Notes under the pieces: generated by a model | Databases searched by the model: none | What the model was told of the DNA's origin: nothing | Seen by the model: only the letters and a program-made list of their open reading frames with translations | Position numbers and translations under genes: made by a program | Sequence record: NC_054918.1 | Direction: 5' to 3' (one strand) | Source: Escherichia phage vB_EcoM_G4498 | DNA: 64,000 bases | Part shown: in pieces, positions 1 to 33,944 of the stretch | Layout: each line of letters opens with the position of its first letter | Numbering within the stretch: the stretch's first letter is position 1

Positions 1-32
1 TAATTCACAGTAATTTTAGTCATAATACACCT

Positions 33-224
33 TTAGTCATAATAATCAGTAACAGTCCAAGCTTCATTTCTATTGGACATTATTTTTGTATATTCTGCTT
101 TAAATGCATTCCTAAGCATAGATTCAGTAACTATATGCTCTTCATTAGAAAAATTATTTCTCAGAATATATCGTTTTATTTCAGGAATAGTTAATAGATG
201 CTGTCCAGTTGAATATTCTGCCAC
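33..224 (-). CDS. hypothetical small protein (63 aa), positioned downstream of gene 46
   Basis: ORF in operon orientation; no recognisable motif. Confidence 0.25.
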   Translation of the reverse strand: MAEYSTGQHLLTIPEIKRYILRNNFSNEEHIVTESMLRNAFKAEYTKIMSNRNEAWTVTDYYD

Positions 225-275
225 AGTTCCTCCGTATAAATATGTTTATCACTCGCTGTATCAAAAGGATATGTT

Positions 276-992
276 ATGAATTATAAACTAATTTATGAAA
301 AGTTAATCTCTAATGCTAAATCTCGAAAACTTGATTGCTATACTGAATCTCATCACATTATACCACGCTGTTTAAACGGTAGTGATGATGCTTCAAACTT
401 AGTAGATTTAACGCCAGAAGAGCACTATGTAGCTCATCAACTTTTAGTAAAAATTTATCCTTCTGAACCAAAATTAGTCTATGCTGCTAACATGATGACA
501 GTTTCCACGAAATACGCTAAACGCAACAATAAAACTTTCGGTTGGATTCGTCGTAAACTCTGGGAAATAGAAAAGAACAAAGAATTCTCCCAGGAGACAC
601 GAAAGAAAATGTCTGATGCAGTAGCTAATAAAGCAAGACTAACTTGTCCTCATTGCGGTAAGTCTGGATTAAGCGGGAATATGAATCGTTGGCATTTTGA
701 TAACTGTCCAAATCACCCTAATCCTAAAGTTAGACCACCATTGTCTAAAGAACACAGAAATAATATCTCAAACGGGCTTAAAGCAATCGTTCTTGAAGAA
801 ACATCCTGCGAATTCTGTGGAATGATAGGCAAGAAATGCGTTATCGCAGCGCATAGAAATTTCTGCAAGAAAAATCCAAATGGACGCAAGAAAACTGAAA
901 AGACTGGTACTTGCGTCCATTGTGGTAAAGTTACCACTTTCGGAAATTTATCAAGATGGCATAATGATAACTGTAAATATAAACCTAGCTAA
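276..992 (+). CDS. HNH-family homing endonuclease (Mob-like), free-standing
   Basis: N-terminal HNH motif ...ESHHIIPRCLNGSDDASNLVDLTPEEHYVAHQ...; three C-terminal Cys-rich repeats (CPHCGK...WHFDNC, CEFCG...HRNFC, CVHCGK...WHNDNC); AAAGGA SD before ATG; opposite strand to neighbours, 3' end overlaps gene 46. Confidence 0.75.
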   Translation: MNYKLIYEKLISNAKSRKLDCYTESHHIIPRCLNGSDDASNLVDLTPEEHYVAHQLLVKIYPSEPKLVYAANMMTVSTKYAKRNNKTFGWIRRKLWEIEKNKEFSQETRKKMSDAVANKARLTCPHCGKSGLSGNMNRWHFDNCPNHPNPKVRPPLSKEHRNNISNGLKAIVLEETSCEFCGMIGKKCVIAAHRNFCKKNPNGRKKTEKTGTCVHCGKVTTFGNLSRWHNDNCKYKPS

Positions 993-2673
993 TCTTAGCT
1001 AAACTAAATCTACCAACTTTTTCCATCTGAATATGCTGACCATATTCTTGTGGGTCATGGTCTTTATGCGAAATTATGAAGAAGTTGGTATCCTTCAAAC
1101 CATCTAAAATTTTAGCTACATTTTTAATACCTTCAGCATCAAATGCACCGTCATATACTTCATCAAGAAATAAACAGCTTATTTTAACACCTGAAACTTT
1201 TTCAGCAATATCACGCCAAGTAAATAAAAGAGCAATATCAATTCGCGCTTTTTCACCTTGACTGAATGAAGCATAACTAAAATCTTCACGACCACGGGAT
1301 TTAATTGTCTCATTAAATTCTTCATCTAATGTAAACACATAATCCGCTTCCATTATTTTAAGATAATGGTTAATCTGCTTATTAAATAATGGAATGTACT
1401 TTTTAATAATAGCACCTTTAATACCAGAATCTTTGAGCATATCAGTCAAAATTCCTCGGTGGTATTTTTCCATTACTAAATTAGTTTTTGTCTTAACAAT
1501 TTTATCAAGTTCTTCTTGAAGCAGTGCTATTTCATCAGCATGGTCAATAAACTCAGAAGATGCTTTTTCTATAGCTGCTTTAACTTTTTTAGCTTTATCT
1601 ACTGTCGTGATTAGAGATTGCTTTTTATTGCGAATATCATTTGCCAACGACTGCTGGGTTTTAATATTATCTCGGTATTCATCAACAAGAACTTTTAAAT
1701 TATCACGATGTGTTGAAAGCTGTTCAAACGAATGCGTGCATTCAGAAACTTTATCTTTAATTTTAGAAACAACTTTATCACCGGAACTTAATTGCGACAA
1801 ACAGGTTGGACATAATCCACCTTCGTGATACATATTAATGACTTTATTATATGAGTCAATTTTTGATTTAATTAAAACTGCTTCTTGACCGATTTTATTA
1901 AATGCATCAGTCGGGTCTTCATCCAAAACAATATTAACTAATCTTTCATTAGCTTCTTCTATTTCCGATTTTAGCGTTCTAGCTTCTTTTGCCAAATCAT
2001 CGTACATATTTTGCAGACGAGTAAGATTGTCACCCGTTAATTTTTTCTGGCGTTCAACGTTATCATTATATATTTTAATTTGTTGGATAATACTATCTTT
2101 TTTAACATCAAGCACTTGGTTTTGTGAATTTAATTCACGTATTAGTGCTTTATTAAGCTTATCCATTTCAGCTAATGTTCCTACCTCAAGCAGGTCTTCC
2201 ACAAGCTTTCTTCGCGCAGGGGTCGACAAACCCATGAAAGGGGTATACCCTGCTGTACCAAGGACAACAATCTGCTTGAAACTGGCATATGACATTCCGA
2301 TAAGCTGTTCAAATTCTGCTTGGAAATCTTTACTGCTGGCAGATTCATTAAGACGTGTACCGTTAACGGTGATTTCGAAAACGTTTGGTTTTTGTCCTCT
2401 TTTGATATAGTACTTTTTCTCATCATATTCCATCCACAGTTCAACTAAAAGTTCTTTCTTATTTGTGCTGTTTATTAATTGACCTTTCTTTACATCACGA
2501 AATGGTTTGCCAAAAAGCCCAAATGTGATGGCTTCTAACATAGTAGACTTACCACCGCCATTTCGGCCAGTAATAAGAGTTTTTTGAACCTTATCTAGTT
2601 GAATGTCAATAGGATTTCCACCTACTGACATTATATTTTGATACCTAACTCGGTTTAGTTTAAAATTCTTCAC
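985..2673 (-). CDS. 46: gp46 recombination endonuclease subunit (Rad50/SbcC-like ATPase)
   Basis: 562 aa; Walker A GRNGGGKST; long central coiled coil; position next to 47. Confidence 0.9.
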   Translation of the reverse strand: MKNFKLNRVRYQNIMSVGGNPIDIQLDKVQKTLITGRNGGGKSTMLEAITFGLFGKPFRDVKKGQLINSTNKKELLVELWMEYDEKKYYIKRGQKPNVFEITVNGTRLNESASSKDFQAEFEQLIGMSYASFKQIVVLGTAGYTPFMGLSTPARRKLVEDLLEVGTLAEMDKLNKALIRELNSQNQVLDVKKDSIIQQIKIYNDNVERQKKLTGDNLTRLQNMYDDLAKEARTLKSEIEEANERLVNIVLDEDPTDAFNKIGQEAVLIKSKIDSYNKVINMYHEGGLCPTCLSQLSSGDKVVSKIKDKVSECTHSFEQLSTHRDNLKVLVDEYRDNIKTQQSLANDIRNKKQSLITTVDKAKKVKAAIEKASSEFIDHADEIALLQEELDKIVKTKTNLVMEKYHRGILTDMLKDSGIKGAIIKKYIPLFNKQINHYLKIMEADYVFTLDEEFNETIKSRGREDFSYASFSQGEKARIDIALLFTWRDIAEKVSGVKISCLFLDEVYDGAFDAEGIKNVAKILDGLKDTNFFIISHKDHDPQEYGQHIQMEKVGRFSLAKIS

Positions 2674-3116
2674 AAAAGATTCCTTTTAATGTATCTTTTA
2701 GACCATTCTATCATATCATCATAATCTAAAAAGTATTCATCAAATTCAGCCATGCAAACAACGCCTTGTGCTGTTTTTGATGTAATATAAATTATTCCAA
2801 CATATCTAGAATCTTCTTCGGTATAATCAATGTTTGCTATGAATTCATCATTAATGTCAAATGTCGAAAACTTCACAGTATGCATCCTTAATACAAGATA
2901 CAGCCATATCTCGTAATGATTTAGGTGTGTCATTATCTAAAATGTTGAAGTTAAAAGATACAGCCCAGTCAGTGCAGACTGTAACCTTTTTAATACAATT
3001 ATCTTCAACCTCTAACGGTTCAAACCAATATTCAATAATTTCTTTATGCCCAATATCATCTTTTACTTCGCATTCAAAATGCTGACTCATCATAACATTT
3101 TTAAATTCATCAAAAG

Positions 3117-4136
3117 TCATTGTGTTGCCTCTACATATAGCTGATTTGCATATTGAATAAGTGCTTCACGGTCAGAATCGGTGATGTCTGGAATTGCATT
3201 AATGTATTCTTCCATCAACGTCTGAAGAGATTGAACTTCAACTTCTTCACTGTCATCTGACTCGACAGAGTTATCAATTTTTGACACAACTCGTAATGAA
3301 TGCACAACTTTTTCTAGTTCAGATTCGAACTTCGTTAGATTTTTGTCTACTTCAGTTACTATAACACGTACTGATAGATTTGTAAAATCTTTATAGTCAA
3401 TTTTTCCTTTAAATGGATAATGAATTCTACGATGCCAGGTAGTGTTGTTTGGAATAAATTCCATTCGTTCTGTTTCTGTATCAAACATCCAGAACCCGCG
3501 AGGGTCATTCTCGTCACCTGCAGTTAGTGTCCATGGTGTCCCAATATATCTGACGTTAGCAGCCTCAGAAATAGTATGGAAGTGACCAGACCACACCTCT
3601 TTATAAGTCTTAAGGAAATCAGGTTCAAGACCATGAGATTTCATTCCTTTATAAAAATAAAATCCATTCAGCTCCCAGTGACCAACACAAAAAGAAGCAG
3701 AAGAAGTTTTTATGTGCTCGAGAATTTCACCAGTATTTTCTTCACACATCCAAGGAATTAAATCAATCAAACATCCGTCAAAATCTACTGTAGTAGGCTT
3801 ATCATATACTTTAACATTATGATATTTAGCCAAAAGCTCAGTAGAGGCATTTGGAGTTAAAGTATTTTTAAAGTGCATATCATGGTTTCCTACAACAGTA
3901 TGTAGGGTAATACCAGCATCATCAAGCATTTGAACTATTTCACGAGCGAACTCCATAGTTTTATGCGTGATTGCTTTTCGCACATCAAAAATATCGCCGT
4001 ATTGAATCCAGGTAGTAATTCCATTTTTCTTAGAATATTCTATCGCTTGCTTAATTCCATCCAACTGAATGGATTGAACCCATTCATCATCGGCTTTAAC
4101 ACCTAAATGCCAATCACCTAAATTTAAAATTTTCAT
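3117..4136 (-). CDS. 47: gp47 recombination endonuclease subunit (Mre11/SbcD-like phosphoesterase)
   Basis: 339 aa; metallophosphatase motifs NLGDWHLG and GNHDM. Confidence 0.9.
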   Translation of the reverse strand: MKILNLGDWHLGVKADDEWVQSIQLDGIKQAIEYSKKNGITTWIQYGDIFDVRKAITHKTMEFAREIVQMLDDAGITLHTVVGNHDMHFKNTLTPNASTELLAKYHNVKVYDKPTTVDFDGCLIDLIPWMCEENTGEILEHIKTSSASFCVGHWELNGFYFYKGMKSHGLEPDFLKTYKEVWSGHFHTISEAANVRYIGTPWTLTAGDENDPRGFWMFDTETERMEFIPNNTTWHRRIHYPFKGKIDYKDFTNLSVRVIVTEVDKNLTKFESELEKVVHSLRVVSKIDNSVESDDSEEVEVQSLQTLMEEYINAIPDITDSDREALIQYANQLYVEATQ

Positions 4137-4296
4137 ATATCAAGAACCGTCATTGAAATGCAAAATAAAATTATTGAAATAAATCCATCTGGAGTGCTAA
4201 AGAACCCAATCCAACATGCTCTAGTGAATAGATAAAATGCAAGAAAAAGTATCACATATCCAAGAAATATCATTATATCAAACTCCGTATAAAGCT

Positions 4297-4314
4297 AAAG
4301 GGCCGAAGCCCTTT
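4297..4314. terminator. hairpin AAAGGG-ccgaag-CCCTTT with U-rich flanks on both strands, overlapping a-gt stop
   Basis: inverted repeat seen in sequence; TTTATTTTG on plus side, UUUAGCUUUAU on minus side. Confidence 0.45.
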
Positions 4315-5515
4315 ATTTTGTAATAATGTCAAACTGTTCTTTAAAACAGAAGCTTGAATCTTGGTGCTGATACAAAAATTCATATGCTTTTTCTCGCTCA
4401 CGGTCATAAAGAGCTCGGTCAGATGACAGTTCTTTAATACGTTCAAACGCTGATTCCATATCATTTTCATCAAACCAAATGATACCGCTATCATGCGAGG
4501 TCAAAGGAGTATTATCAACACGGAATTTTAAATTTTCGCCAGTAGATTTCCAAAATACCGGAATTGTTCCACATGCACCAAGCTCGAGATGAGTATATTC
4601 TAAAGAGCGCTGTAGATATTTTTTATCCAACTTACTCAACTGATAACCAAATCCGGATTTACTCATACGTTCAAGCATTTCGCTATTTACATAACGATCG
4701 AGAATTTGCGTTGGTAAATTAGGAGCAATTTTAATTTGGTCTACTTGATGAAGACGATAATACTCGTATGGAATTCCTTTTTCTTTAATAGGAATGAACG
4801 CTGGAGAACGTTCCAGACCTTCCATAATAGTACTTAGTCCTGCAGGTTTAAGATGTTTTTCGTGAAAATCAAACATCTGATAAAAACCTTTCCATGTAGT
4901 CGTACGACCAATCCAACGGTTGACATTCATGTTAATTTCAGAAACATCTTTCCAGTAGGTTGACCGAACCTTCGCAATATCCATAGGAGGCTGAAAGTTA
5001 TATACGGTCGGCGCTTCTTCAATATCATCAAACAGAGAAACAGTTTCTGGATACCATTCTTTCATCAGAACTTTATTAAAATCACCATTATCAGAATGGC
5101 TAAAAATAACATCAGCTCGACGAACAGTTTCTTCTAATCCCAAATTTCGACGCAAAGAAAGAGAAGAATGGTCATGTTGATAAACTACAACACGAACCGA
5201 AGGTTTAATGTTATCAATAATTTTTTTATAGTTATTAATAGTGTCTTCTTCAACTGAAGTAGCAGGAACTGAATTGATAATTAGAATATCACAATCATTT
5301 ACCAGCTTAAGTGTTTTATCGTATTCTTTTGCCAATAAAACCGGAATTGAAAATGATTTATAATCATGCGCACAGTTACGAGTAAATGATTTATCTTTGG
5401 CATAAACCAAAGTTACTTCATGACCATTTTTAATAAACCAATCACGTTGCTCGAGTGAGAATTTTGTTACACCACAACCTTCAAGACCTCGAGCCATAAA
5501 AATACATACTTTCAT
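4313..5515 (-). CDS. a-gt: DNA alpha-glucosyltransferase
   Basis: 400 aa; N-terminus CIFMARGLEGCGVTKFSLEQRDWFIKNGHEVTLVYAKDKSFTR matches T4 alpha-gt as recalled; sits between 47 and 55. Confidence 0.8.
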   Translation of the reverse strand: MKVCIFMARGLEGCGVTKFSLEQRDWFIKNGHEVTLVYAKDKSFTRNCAHDYKSFSIPVLLAKEYDKTLKLVNDCDILIINSVPATSVEEDTINNYKKIIDNIKPSVRVVVYQHDHSSLSLRRNLGLEETVRRADVIFSHSDNGDFNKVLMKEWYPETVSLFDDIEEAPTVYNFQPPMDIAKVRSTYWKDVSEINMNVNRWIGRTTTWKGFYQMFDFHEKHLKPAGLSTIMEGLERSPAFIPIKEKGIPYEYYRLHQVDQIKIAPNLPTQILDRYVNSEMLERMSKSGFGYQLSKLDKKYLQRSLEYTHLELGACGTIPVFWKSTGENLKFRVDNTPLTSHDSGIIWFDENDMESAFERIKELSSDRALYDREREKAYEFLYQHQDSSFCFKEQFDIITK

Positions 5516-29494: not shown

Positions 29495-29672
29495 CTAAAC
29501 GAATGGGTTCATGAATGCCATATCCCTGAACAGAAATTTCTGTCGTAGGATAAATTCCATCAATATCACCCATATTCCACGCTTCATTAAATTGCTGTTC
29601 GCCTGAATTACTAAACCACTCGGCGAAAGCATTTAGCACATCTTCAGAACCTTCAATAATTATCTTTGCCAT
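29451..29672 (-). CDS. hypothetical protein (73 aa)
   Basis: ORF. Confidence 0.4.
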   Translation of the reverse strand: MAKIIIEGSEDVLNAFAEWFSNSGEQQFNEAWNMGDIDGIYPTTEISVQGYGIHEPIRLVEYDLCTGEEVKYD

Positions 29673-30034
29673 TACAAACTCTCGGTAAAGGTACGAGCGA
29701 TAACGTCGCGCTGCTGTTCCGGAGTCAGAGAGTTAAAGCGAACTGCATAACCGGATACACGGATGGTCAGCTGCGGATATTTTTCCGGATGCTTAACTGC
29801 ATCTTCCAGAGTTTCACGACGCAGAACGTTAACGTTCAGGTGTTGACCACCTTCAATTTTAACTGTAGGCTGTGGCTCAATTTCAATTTCACGGGCATGC
29901 AAACCATAGAAAATTTCTGGGTCTACAAAAGAGTCCTCTTTAAAGGTTTTAGAAACGATAATTCGTGCTTGAATACCATCTTCAAAATAAATAGTACCTT
30001 TATGTGTTCCTTCAAGAATTTGATATGCTTTCAT
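29672..30034 (-). CDS. autonomous glycyl radical cofactor (GrcA/YfiD-like; T4 Y06I homologue)
   Basis: 120 aa; C-terminal [60 protein letters not shown] is the glycyl-radical domain (RVSGY). Confidence 0.8.
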
Positions 30035-30041
30035 ATAAACC

Positions 30042-30371
30042 TCAATTAGAAAATAAATTTATCCAGGATTGTTCTTTAATTAAAAATGGCTCAGAATCAT
30101 ATGCCATTAAACTTTGGGTAATTAACCCTTTAAAAGGTCCATCAATAAATTCCATGGTAAAATATGGAATTTTATTCATTAGCCGTGCATTAGGAGCAGT
30201 ACATAAAACTCTGCATCCTTTGAATACACCTTTTTGTAATTTGTATTGCTTGGGATAAAATTCGCTCAAAATGTTATTATTTGCTAAAATTTCAAAATGA
30301 TTCACCAATTTATTTTTAATAGTTTTTGGCGAAAAATAAAGATATTCGAAAAGCTGAGTGTCTGTCATCAT
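30042..30371 (-). CDS. hypothetical protein (about 109 aa)
   Basis: ORF; start likely at internal MMTD. Confidence 0.4.
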
Positions 30372-32540: not shown

Positions 32541-32651
32541 TTAGTAAATTGATTTACCAAAGTATTTGTACCAAGTCGGACGTTGATCAATTTTTTCATC
32601 TAAGCGTGCTTGATTTATCGCAATGGACGCTTCGGACGGGTCATAATTTCC
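32541..32651 (-). pseudogene. denV: denV (endonuclease V, pyrimidine dimer glycosylase) 3' remnant, last ~36 codons only
   Basis: translation [36 protein letters not shown] matches the T4 DenV C-terminus as recalled; upstream sequence is promoter/IP-gene DNA, not denV. Confidence 0.6.
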
Positions 32652-32671
32652 TCCAAGTAGTTGATGAATGT

Positions 32672-32701
32672 ATAGTATCAAAACCCTTGGAGGAAGTAAA
32701 C
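32672..32701 (-). promoter_or_regulatory. T4-type early promoter (-35 GTTTAC, -10 TACTAT) inside the denV-remnant ORF
   Basis: minus-strand GTTTACTTCCTCCAAGGGTTTTGATACTATACATTC. Confidence 0.45.
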
Positions 32702-32703
32702 AA

Positions 32704-33944
<1,241 letters not shown>

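Follow-up and report, generated by a model that had tools for sequence, protein, structure and literature searches.

Mob-type enzymes are the least understood of the T4 homing endonucleases: MobE is the only one with demonstrated activity, although MobA has been reported to nick (PMC2988022). MobE nicks nrdB ~125 nt inside this neighbouring gene and co-converts the flanks (PMC2790892). In the stretch of DNA analysed here (the window; 64,000 nucleotides of Escherichia phage vB_EcoM_G4498, NC_054918.1), a stand-alone open reading frame related to these enzymes lies between genes 45.2 and 46, antisense to both neighbours, in the following arrangement:

33..224, minus strand: gene 45.2, the left neighbour, with a GTG start and one extra Ala codon in endonuclease carriers
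219..1002, no strand assigned: cassette segment replacing ~65-80 bp of T4 sequence, for a net gain of ~705 bp
276..992, plus strand: endonuclease ORF of the Mob type (MobE-like) with an HNH domain, 238 aa, ATG start
985..992, no strand assigned: 8 nt shared by the endonuclease gene and gene 46 where they converge at their 3' ends
985..2673, minus strand: gene 46, the right neighbour, convergent with the endonuclease ORF

Comparison with described endonucleases

The initial annotation had read this ORF as a free-standing HNH homing endonuclease, and the searches agree. Its protein matches phrog_655, "homing endonuclease", at 9e-69, and BLASTP against T4 proteins retrieves MobE (1.6e-33), MobB (2e-29), MobD (4e-23) and MobC (4e-22), these four being the Mob proteins in the set. 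MobE is the closest T4 paralog, with 35% identity across the full length. The initial annotation had suggested a comparison with MobA-E and I-Hmu-type endonucleases; the nearest T4 relative is MobE rather than MobA-D or I-HmuI. An intron-encoded gene can be ruled out, as no Rfam group I intron family is matched in positions 1-3200 at E values up to 1.

The resemblance to MobE extends over the whole protein, both having an HNH domain with "MNY..IY" at the N-terminus, helices of the NUMOD3 type and, at the C-terminus, a C2HC finger that reads CPHCGK..N..RWH.D.CK. It also extends to the setting, both genes being free-standing in a spacer beside a conserved gene, polymorphic in T-even phages and associated with co-conversion of the neighbour (PMC2790892). 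Nevertheless, the two differ in several respects. The gene described here occupies the 45.2/46 site, with a target probably in gene 46, whereas MobE occupies the nrdA/nrdB site with its target in nrdB. In the present protein there are three fingers with approximately two NUMOD3-like helices, in contrast to the single finger of MobE and its NUMOD3-rich region scoring above the Pfam cut-off. Finally, the gene lies on the strand opposite to its neighbours, preceded by a late-promoter motif of its own, while mobE lacks a promoter and shares its transcript with nrdA. The search for an internal terminator was negative.

MobB, MobC and MobD share the homologous N-terminal HNH domain (37-53% identity over the first 70-140 residues), but their C-terminal regions are unrelated, none has a C2HC finger, and their insertion sites differ from 45.2/46 (PMC2988022). 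I-TevIII has zinc fingers (PMC1865063). At a greater distance, I-HmuI of SPO1 and I-TevIII of RB3 also have a modular layout, with an elongated DNA-binding part after the HNH nuclease; in contrast to the 45.2/46 endonuclease they are intron-encoded, they differ from it in the order and type of their DNA-binding modules, and neither surfaced in sequence or fold searches against solved structures. I-HmuI is a nickase.

The gene itself is already known. Its ~99% identical counterpart RB32ORF054w is recorded in GenBank as "homing endonuclease, similar to mobB", and it is labelled in public genome records such as those of RB32, RB33, RB51 and RB68. Its novelty is consequently low, and its annotation value is that of a routine Mob-like HNH homing endonuclease call on which many GenBank records agree. 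Within an incomplete coverage of the literature, we found no paper devoted to the 45.2/46 endonuclease gene or to the C2HC finger present in Mob proteins, and the papers searched contained no experimental characterisation of the target or of the finger array.

The HNH domain and the DNA-binding region

The domains of the predicted protein are distributed as follows:

345..437, plus strand: HNH catalytic core, residues 24-54 (E24, H26, H27, N41, H50, H54)
585..623, plus strand: NUMOD3-like helix 1, residues 104-116, FSQETRKKMSDAV, model helix 106-117
645..707, plus strand: C2HC finger 1, C124-x2-C127-x12-H140-x3-C144 (C124-PHCGKSGLSGNMNRWHFDN-C144)
741..779, plus strand: NUMOD3-like helix 2, residues 156-168, LSKEHRNNISNGL, S-x-E-h-R-x-x-h-S pattern, model helix 158-170
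807..866, plus strand: C2HC finger 2, C178-x2-C181-x11-H193-x3-C197 (C178-EFCGMIGKKCVIAAHRNF-C197)
912..974, plus strand: C2HC finger 3, C213-x2-C216-x12-H229-x3-C233 (C213-VHCGKVTTFGNLSRWHNDN-C233)

The N-terminal HNH motif noted initially, ESHHIIPRCLNGSDDASNLVDLTPEEHYVAH, is present, and the alignment of 29 homologs shows no variation at its residues E24, H26, H27, N41, H50 and H54. Searched as a profile, the family aligns these residues to the HNH motif of EcoKMcrA (E 0.0013) and also reaches a group II intron maturase (0.0088), IscB and Cas8-HNH, in addition to an NCBIfam match to the IscB HNH region (3.7e-5). In the predicted model, this part of the protein forms two strands and a helix (E24-27, E42-45 and H47-60). 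The Pfam HNH model (PF01844) scores 14.8 bits (E 0.032), below its cut-off of 21.4; it matches 13 of the 29 homologs at E <=0.01, and T4 MobE lies above the cut-off with 24.6 bits. Therefore, the membership of this protein in the HNH group rests on its homology to MobE and on the motif itself and not on the Pfam score; its nuclease activity is predicted.

The three C-terminal Cys-His repeats are exactly those initially described, with the spacing C-x2-C-x12/11/12-H-x3-C, compatible with C-x2-4-C-x12-H-x3-5-(H/C). The four ligands of finger 3 (C213, C216, H229 and C233) are invariant among the 29 homologs and the residues of finger 1 are at least 90% conserved in the same alignment; as the repeats are kept in orthologs, they do not represent a chance pattern. 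The AlphaFold model (mean pLDDT 88) proposes a beta-hairpin and a helix for each repeat, finger 1 comprising strands 121-123 and 130-132 followed by helix 133-143, and it is thus plausible, from the spacing and the model, that they are C2HC beta-beta-alpha fingers. The best Foldseek matches are zinc-finger arrays, although weak ones (TRAF6, E 0.011, probability 0.96; CTCF, E 0.028), and no Pfam zinc-finger model reaches its cut-off on these fingers. Fingers 2 and 3 jointly match phrog_27406 (2e-10) and phrog_12324 (4e-8). T4 MobE contains one finger of the same type at residue 206, CPHCGKKVNKGNALRWHYDKC, and the number of fingers among homologs ranges from one to three.

On the first helix, the Pfam NUMOD3 model (PF07460) gives 12.4 bits (E 0.16), under its cut-off of 20.4, and matches 10 of the 29 homologs, the best at 7e-20. 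The second helix has no significant Pfam match and is assigned by reading its pattern. The repeats resemble TRAF-type and classical beta-beta-alpha (C2HC/C2H2) fingers in their C-x2-C-x12-H-x3-C spacing and predicted hairpin and helix, and, by analogy, the whole protein would resemble engineered zinc-finger nucleases, in which a nuclease is tethered to a finger array. Here, however, long linkers and NUMOD3-like helices lie between one finger and the next, instead of canonical TGEKP-type linkers. The zinc-finger DNA-binding module proposed in the initial annotation is a plausible reading of the spacing and the modelled structure, in which the fingers would be expected to bind DNA.

The subthreshold Pfam scores, together with the overlap of the ORF with the gene 46 stop codon and the existence of defunct endonucleases in T4, such as I-TevIII, could be taken to indicate a decaying, inactive relic that persists since its deletion would harm the overlapping end of gene 46. 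The invariance of the catalytic residues argues against this. Likewise, the dN/dS values among Tequatrovirus endonuclease alleles are 0.03-0.11, showing that the protein is under purifying selection; a range of 0.03-0.28 accompanies the 14 orthologs examined, all of which are intact, full length and free of stop codons across five or more lineages. We therefore regard a relic as extremely improbable. On the basis of its sequence, the ORF is a real and intact selfish homing endonuclease gene of the MobE type.

Insertion site and distribution

T4 lacks an endonuclease at this site, as the initial annotation stated: in NC_000866, 45.2 and 46 are only 55 bp apart, which represents the empty site. 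A comparison of the region downstream of gene 46 across T-even phages was suggested as a way to delimit the insertion, and the comparison with T4 places the cassette at 219..1002. The left flank is identical to T4 at 218 of 218 positions up to position 218, and similarity resumes at ~1003. The T4 sequence displaced by the cassette runs from the start codon of 45.2 through the spacer between the genes to the final codons of gene 46; 45.2 begins VAEYST... in the window vs MEYST... in T4. On the other side, the overlap noted initially between the 3' end of the endonuclease gene and that of gene 46 on the opposite strand amounts to 8 nt; in orthologs, the overlap with gene 46 is 4-17 nt, or else a gap of a few to ~20 nt lies between the two genes.

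The distribution of the gene agrees with the mobile insertion suggested initially, and clearly not with universal conservation at this site, which had been named as the observation that would speak against it. The endonuclease was found in 58 of 655 related phage records (~9-11% of close relatives), and filled and empty sites coexist in Tequatrovirus and in JS98-like, FL31-like and L045/L029-type phages. In IMG/VR, the site is filled in only one of 30 gp46 loci. All 15 orthologous loci, with 36-99% identity, lie between 45.2 and 46 and are convergent with 46, and several genera of the Tevenvirinae have orthologs of 36-64% identity at the 45.2/46 junction. A match to the three-finger region was obtained in 172 phage records and, among the matches listed, nearly all adjoin gene 46. 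These sequence distributions support the interpretation of the endonuclease as a mobile insertion at 45.2/46 in a minority of T4-like phages.

A recoded 3' end of gene 46 linked to the endonuclease

The neighbouring end of gene 46 differs from T4 well beyond the cassette:

985..1215, minus strand: recoded gene 46 3' end, from Walker B to the gp46 C-terminus, linked to the endonuclease

Identity to T4 is 75-82% in this patch and 94-100% in most other gene 46 sequence, and the tail of gp46 reads ...GRFSLAKIS* in the window vs ...GRFTVMV* in T4. The patch is present at >=95% identity in exactly 58 phage records, the same number as carry the endonuclease, and in none at 90-95%. In four independent pairs of filled and empty sites, the patch is 50-83% identical and the gene 46 body 95-100%, with a patch length of ~180-210 nt, or 330 nt in one pair. 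The similarity of the patch follows that of the endonuclease and not that of the gp46 body: between FL31 and L047 the values are 69 for the endonuclease, 81 for the patch and 56 for the gp46 body, and between FL31 and the window they are 57, 68 and 81, respectively. No sampled genus matches the Tequatrovirus patch at more than 74%, leaving its donor without a candidate among them. Gene 46 and its neighbours carry further mosaic patches unrelated to the endonuclease and, therefore, local divergence alone is no proof of homing. Nevertheless, the comparative evidence points to co-conversion of this flank together with the endonuclease gene, with a footprint on the gene 46 side in four lineages and none on the 45.2 side.

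Candidate marks of the carrier alleles were also considered. In window coordinates, the MKKVGRF block is at 1006-1026, the Walker-B block at 1153-1167 and the edge of the patch at ~1190-1240. There is no one substitution that distinguishes every filled gene 46 allele from every empty one. A universal "immunity" change at the AAG-AAA (Lys-Lys) codons preceding GRF is ruled out, since two of the carriers (L042 and L043) keep MKK. Similarly, the change of the Walker-B Phe to Tyr or Met is found in none of the 29 empty alleles but in only 8 of the 12 carrier alleles, Phe being retained in the carriers MHG19, L019, L045 and L046, and is consequently not diagnostic.

We consider it likely that this gene encodes an active free-standing Mob endonuclease, similar to MobE, that homes via the 3' end of gene 46. 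In the layout proposed, an N-terminal HNH nuclease would be followed by NUMOD3-like helices interleaved with three C2HC zinc fingers, and a T4 late promoter belonging to the gene would drive its transcription on the late strand. During co-infection with an endonuclease-free relative, the enzyme would nick or cut within approximately the last 240 bp of the relative's gene 46, a stretch that encodes conserved Rad50-like ATPase motifs. Phage recombination would then repair the lesion using the endonuclease-carrying genome as the template, and the cassette, together with the adjacent ~200 bp of gene 46, would be copied into the 45.2/46 junction. With its gene 46 end recoded and its tail rewritten, the carrier would presumably be resistant to its own enzyme. 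The position of the target, the type of lesion (nick or double-strand break) and the resistance of the carrier allele are putative elements of this scheme.

An elaboration of this scheme, which we find possible although rather doubtful, is a two-part drive consisting of a "zinc-finger nickase" and a linked resistance allele, the recoded ~200 bp of gene 46. The target would then lie deep in gene 46, ~150-230 bp away from the insertion point, either in the vicinity of the block coding for Walker B or where the patch ends distally. The tight linkage of the patch would arise because any recombinant that combined the endonuclease with a sensitive site would be cut by its own enzyme. If this were the case, the number of fingers (one to three) would set the length and specificity of the target, making the family a natural re-targetable scaffold.

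Alternatively, the target could be the insertion point itself, at the start of 45.2 or in the 45.2-46 spacer, with the gene 46 patch representing hitch-hiking divergence of the donor. The cassette does replace the T4 spacer and the 45.2 start codon, so that insertion would destroy a target located there, as with intron-encoded enzymes, and carrier-specific base changes are densest at the very end of gene 46, in its final codons and tail. However, empty-site genomes from different genera do not share a conserved spacer, while orthologs down to 36% identity still occupy the same site, and the asymmetric footprint described above is not the one expected from such a target. In addition, characterised free-standing phage endonucleases cut inside the conserved neighbouring gene (PMC2790892, PMC2988022). 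A target at the insertion point therefore seems unlikely to us, and we retain homing via the 3' end of gene 46.

As a study system, the locus has modest value. A single insertion site is kept across several genera. The linked patch lies in an essential Rad50-like gene and has sharp boundaries, so that only ~240 bp need to be considered for the cut site. The DNA-binding region contains a C2HC finger, in one to three copies, for which there is no Pfam model. With these three clear features, a mapping experiment would be short and interpretable. Although the gene is ordinary, there is something to learn from its three zinc fingers and from the footprint in gene 46.

Upstream region and transcription

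Two elements precede the endonuclease gene:

235..242, plus strand: T4 late-promoter consensus TATAAATA, beginning 41 nt upstream of the endonuclease ATG
243..275, plus strand: conserved 5' leader TTTATC-N-GCTGTATCAAAAGGA, which includes the Shine-Dalgarno-like AAGGA at 265-269, 6 nt ahead of the ATG

The TATAAATA motif at 235..242 is the only plus-strand match in the first 44 kb. Across the window, the motif occurs 12 times for a chance expectation of 10.65, not above chance, and a single match is not significant alone. Its position is shared by other carriers, at -41 to -53 in RB32, MHG19, FL31 and L019, and variants with one mismatch occur in other lineages. Neither a sigma-70-like promoter nor an intrinsic terminator was found flanking the ORF in positions 1-1500. 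The leader is conserved at the nucleotide level in 8 of 12 lineages, even though the proteins are only ~56-68% identical between lineages. Folding in seven lineages revealed no significant RNA structure (z -1.0 to +0.7), ruling out a hairpin that hides the ribosome-binding site as in mobE and I-TevI. Operator mimicry of the I-TevI kind is also ruled out: the alignment of the leader and late-promoter region with the gene 46 3' end of empty sites, in both orientations, was no better than with shuffled controls in 15 comparisons, with two borderline values that are not meaningful.

On the plus strand, the first strong terminator-like hairpin is at 4296-4315, preceded by a weak one with a 5-bp stem at 2966-2981. 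Owing to this lack of a near terminator, late transcription may continue across gene 46, and possibly 47, in the antisense direction. Such transcripts, perhaps reaching 47, would be compatible with the idea that the gene is not, or not only, a mobility enzyme and is kept for a role beneficial to the phage, for instance the exclusion of competitor genomes, the regulation of 45.2/46 by DNA binding or a late antisense transcript across 46-47. The strong purifying selection, the nucleotide-level conservation of the leader, for which we have no explanation, and the precedent of I-TevI, an endonuclease that doubles as a repressor (PMC2988022), point in the same direction. Nevertheless, if the gene were beneficial, one would expect to find it commonly, instead of in a small fraction of close relatives; the linked patch and the co-transfer across genera are signatures of homing, and the leader is unlike the presumed target. 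We thus hold a role of this kind to be quite improbable in comparison with homing via gene 46.

The initial annotation also described the endonuclease as the sole plus-strand gene in the first 44 kb, which holds among ORFs of at least 110 aa. Three other plus-strand ORFs of this size exist there (2027-2410, 29666-30049 and 32549-33013), none with a PHROG match, and at least two of them are antisense to minus-strand ORFs, namely gene 46 and a phrog_1209 ORF at 29672..30034.

The MobE-like endonuclease gene and its family

Adjoining gene 46 lies a cassette for a MobE-like HNH homing endonuclease, which public genomes already annotate. The initial annotation described it as a free-standing HNH endonuclease gene with three Cys-His repeats, converging on gene 46. 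We re-found the ORF and its motifs, and the reading as a mobile homing endonuclease is supported by MobE homology, insertion polymorphism and a linked patch, the recoded 3' end of gene 46 next to the cassette (window 985..1215, minus strand).

Features at the 45.2/46 junction
33..224, minus strand: gene 45.2, left neighbour of the endonuclease ORF
235-242, plus strand: T4 late-promoter consensus TATAAATA, upstream of the endonuclease ATG
265-269, plus strand: Shine-Dalgarno AAGGA of the endonuclease ORF, 6 nt ahead of the ATG
276..992, plus strand: endonuclease ORF, ATG start, 238 aa
985..2673, minus strand: gene 46, Rad50/SbcC-like, 562 aa, convergent with the endonuclease ORF

The convergent ends of the endonuclease ORF and gene 46 overlap by 8 nt. 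The protein starts with the Mob-type signature MNYKLIYEKLI, contains the motif ESHHIIPRCLNGSDDASNLVDLTPEEHYVAH and carries three C-x2-C-x11/12-H-x3-C repeats in its C-terminal part (residues 124-144, 178-197 and 213-233). Within the first 44 kb, none of the other plus-strand ORFs of 110 aa or longer matches a PHROG, and at least two run antisense to minus-strand ORFs; for ORFs of this size, the description of this gene as the only plus-strand gene in that region was therefore accurate.

Over its first 3.2 kb, the window shares 98-99% identity with a group of Tequatrovirus genomes, slur07, RB32 and RB33 among them; their records label the ORF "homing endonuclease", "similar to mobB" or "putative site-specific intron-like DNA endonuclease". 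Since two mob-like HNH genes are listed for RB32 (Petrov et al., 2010; PMC2993671), the gene was already known as an annotation; no experimental work on this 45.2/46 gene was found in the literature searched. The protein matches phrog_655 "homing endonuclease" in PHROGs (9e-69) and lies under every Pfam threshold (HNH, 14.8 bits vs 21.4; NUMOD3, 12.4 vs 20.4). Against the T4 Mob proteins, BLASTP recovered a full-length match to MobE (35% identity, 1.6e-33), while MobB, MobD and MobC match via the N-terminal domain only. Unlike the window's endonuclease, MobE passes Pfam HNH and NUMOD3, and it has at its C-terminus a single copy of the same finger type, CPHCGKKVNKGNALRWHYDKC; in contrast, MobB, MobC and MobD are devoid of this C2HC finger. 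An alignment of the protein's homologs (29 sequences) shows no variation at E24, H26, H27, N41, H50, H54 or any of the four finger 3 ligands, and the resulting profile hits HNH motifs in EcoKMcrA (E 0.0013), in a group II intron maturase, and in IscB and Cas8-HNH.

An AlphaFold2 model built with this 29-sequence alignment (mean pLDDT 88.4, pTM 0.51) indicates well-defined predicted modules whose mutual orientation is undefined in the model. Residues 24-60 are modelled as two strands and a helix and each Cys-His repeat as a hairpin followed by a helix, with helices 106-117 and 158-170 situated between modules. Pfam searches of the endonuclease and its homologs retrieved no model for this finger. 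The more distant homologs checked in the alignment have one or two fingers each, alternating with NUMOD3 repeats, and because of this variable number and alternation the predicted DNA-binding region looks modular.

All 14 orthologs have intact ORFs. Tequatrovirus alleles have dN/dS values of 0.03-0.11, and deeper comparisons with estimable dS give 0.11-0.28; judging from these values and the intact ORFs, the protein is probably functional and not a relic.

Insertion polymorphism and site fidelity

In T4, only 55 bp separate 45.2 from 46. The window and T4 are identical over the left flank (218/218) up to position 218, from where about 780 bp stands in for the start codon of T4 45.2, the spacer and the last gene 46 codons. 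Both neighbouring ends are altered: 45.2 starts with GTG and one additional Ala codon in carrier genomes vs ATG in T4, and gp46 ends in ...GRFSLAKIS* vs ...GRFTVMV*. Far from being universally conserved at this site, the gene is carried by just 58 of the 655 phage records that matched, and the site is filled in only one of 30 IMG/VR loci retrieved via gp46. Together with the empty T4 site, the 58/655 distribution supports the mobile insertion initially proposed. Within the replaced T4 spacer (~4258-4295) is an inverted repeat, AGAGATTAT...ATAATCTCT, possibly a terminator or an element for RNA processing.

In Yersinia phage MHG19, Mosigvirus FL31 and mar005p1, a JS98-like contig (L019), Klebsiella Squirrel_ER27 and seven metagenomic contigs, orthologs with 36-64% identity likewise follow 45.2 and converge on gene 46. 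Their ends overlap gene 46 by 4-17 nt or leave a gap of a few to ~20 nt. Searching by tblastn with the three-finger region alone gave 172 phage records at a coverage of at least 80%; among the matches listed, nearly all adjoin gene 46, including Karamvirus-like (Cronobacter, Enterobacter) and Slopekvirus-like (Klebsiella) ones, some labelled "Mob-like HNH homing endonuclease". A two-fingered relative, P0039 (~40-45% identity), is located off-site (locus L049, 2501-3229) between RecA/UvsX-like and AAA_33 kinase-like genes, convergent with the latter, an example of re-targeting in this family.

A short palindrome, AAGCCTCA(T/A)TAAGAGGCTT, lies exactly at the endonuclease/gene 46 stop junction in FL31, L019 and two further loci (L042, L044), and may be a bidirectional hairpin; the Tequatrovirus junction is without it. 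Enterobacteria phage Aplg8 and Tequatrovirus LF73P1 have a second element of ~870 bp just upstream of gene 46 (window ~2673, between 46.1 and 46), so that gene 46 is flanked on both sides by inserted elements. In Aplg8 it encodes a second "homing endonuclease" ORF (2989-3843, minus strand, 284 aa) with zero Pfam or NCBIfam matches. Among the records PV654520.1 and PV654517.1, one named "Pseudomonas phage vB_PSGBLB0006" (stated host P. aeruginosa) contains this Tequatrovirus region at 98% identity with an endonuclease 99.6% identical to the window's, which suggests a mixed sample or a wrongly assigned host.

A linked patch in gene 46

The 200 bp of gene 46 adjoining the endonuclease are 75-82% identical between the window and T4, vs 94-100% for most of the remaining gene. 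In all, four independent filled/empty pairs with 95-100% identity in the body of gene 46 show this pattern.

Extent of the patch, counted upstream of the GRF codon
Window vs T4: 0-210 nt
FL31 vs L010: 30-180 nt
L019 vs a JS98-like genome: 0-210 nt
L045 vs L029: 0-330 nt

At 95% identity or more, the window's patch was found in exactly 58 phage records, the same count as for the endonuclease, with none at 90-95%; RB68, the most divergent of the 58, also has the endonuclease gene. Pairwise similarities such as those of FL31 show a patch that appears to track the endonuclease and not the gp46 body (FL31 vs L047: endonuclease 69%, patch 81%, body 56%; FL31 vs window: 57%, 68% and 81%). Global rank correlations did not separate the patch from the gp46 body, and the case is thus built on these specific comparisons of FL31, L047 and the window. 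By these comparisons, the endonuclease gene probably travels jointly with ~200 bp of gene 46, even across genera. Homing with obligatory co-conversion from a gene 46 cut site to the insertion point would leave exactly such a linked patch, and MobE provides a precedent (PMC2790892). No patch-like footprint was seen on the 45.2 side between the window and T4. In the literature searched, there was no mention of a three-finger C2HC array, long-term 45.2/46 fidelity or a bounded linked recoding of gene 46; we infer all three, the recoding being sharply bounded, from sequence comparison.

Other short window segments also diverge strongly from T4 (4603-4802, 3803-4102 and 2603-2702, respectively), with identities of 67-79% in alpha-gt, 83-91% at the gene 47 5' end and 87% at the 46/46.1 junction; therefore, mosaic patches are not unique to the endonuclease flank. 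The empty-site locus L010 (IMG/VR, 121,442 bp) agrees with the carrier FL31 over the 30 nt preceding GRF (ATG AGC AAA GTT) and has an extended tail, TVMTVS*, but is unlike FL31 30-180 nt upstream. Possible readings are a resistant empty site, loss of the endonuclease, or just an allele native to its genus.

Candidate target and expression

The last codons of empty sites are near-uniform in nucleotides (...ATG AAG AAA GTT GGN CGN TTY ACN GTN ATG GAA). Bases rare among empty alleles occur in carriers mainly at the Lys codon before GRF, in the tail and at the codon after Walker-B LDEV, where Phe is encoded in 29/29 empty alleles and Tyr or Met in 8 of 12 carrier alleles. The distal edge of the patch adjoins an invariant block coding IDIALLFTWRDIA (window 1205-1239). 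These features put the putative target in about the final 240 bp of gene 46. Neither substitution is a universal carrier mark: Lys-Lys is retained in carriers L042 and L043, and Phe in four carrier lineages.

TATAAATA occurs 12 times in the window (10.65 expected), so a single match is not significant, but four diverged lineages carry it at -41 to -53, and others have one-mismatch variants. The gene 45.2 ribosome-binding site GGAGGAA (227-233, other strand) adjoins it (window 222-234 region). The leader between TATAAATA and the ATG (243-275), TTTATC-N-GCTGTATCAAATAAGGA, is conserved in nucleotides among the window, L003, FL31, L019, L042, L043 and L047, whose proteins are only ~60% identical; it has no significant folding or hairpin and no resemblance to the gene 46 end, the presumed target. 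Neither a sigma-70-type promoter nor a terminator was found flanking the ORF. Plus-strand terminator-like hairpins comprise a weak 5-bp one at 2966 and a first strong one at 4296, and late transcription may thus, speculatively, extend antisense across gene 46 and perhaps gene 47.
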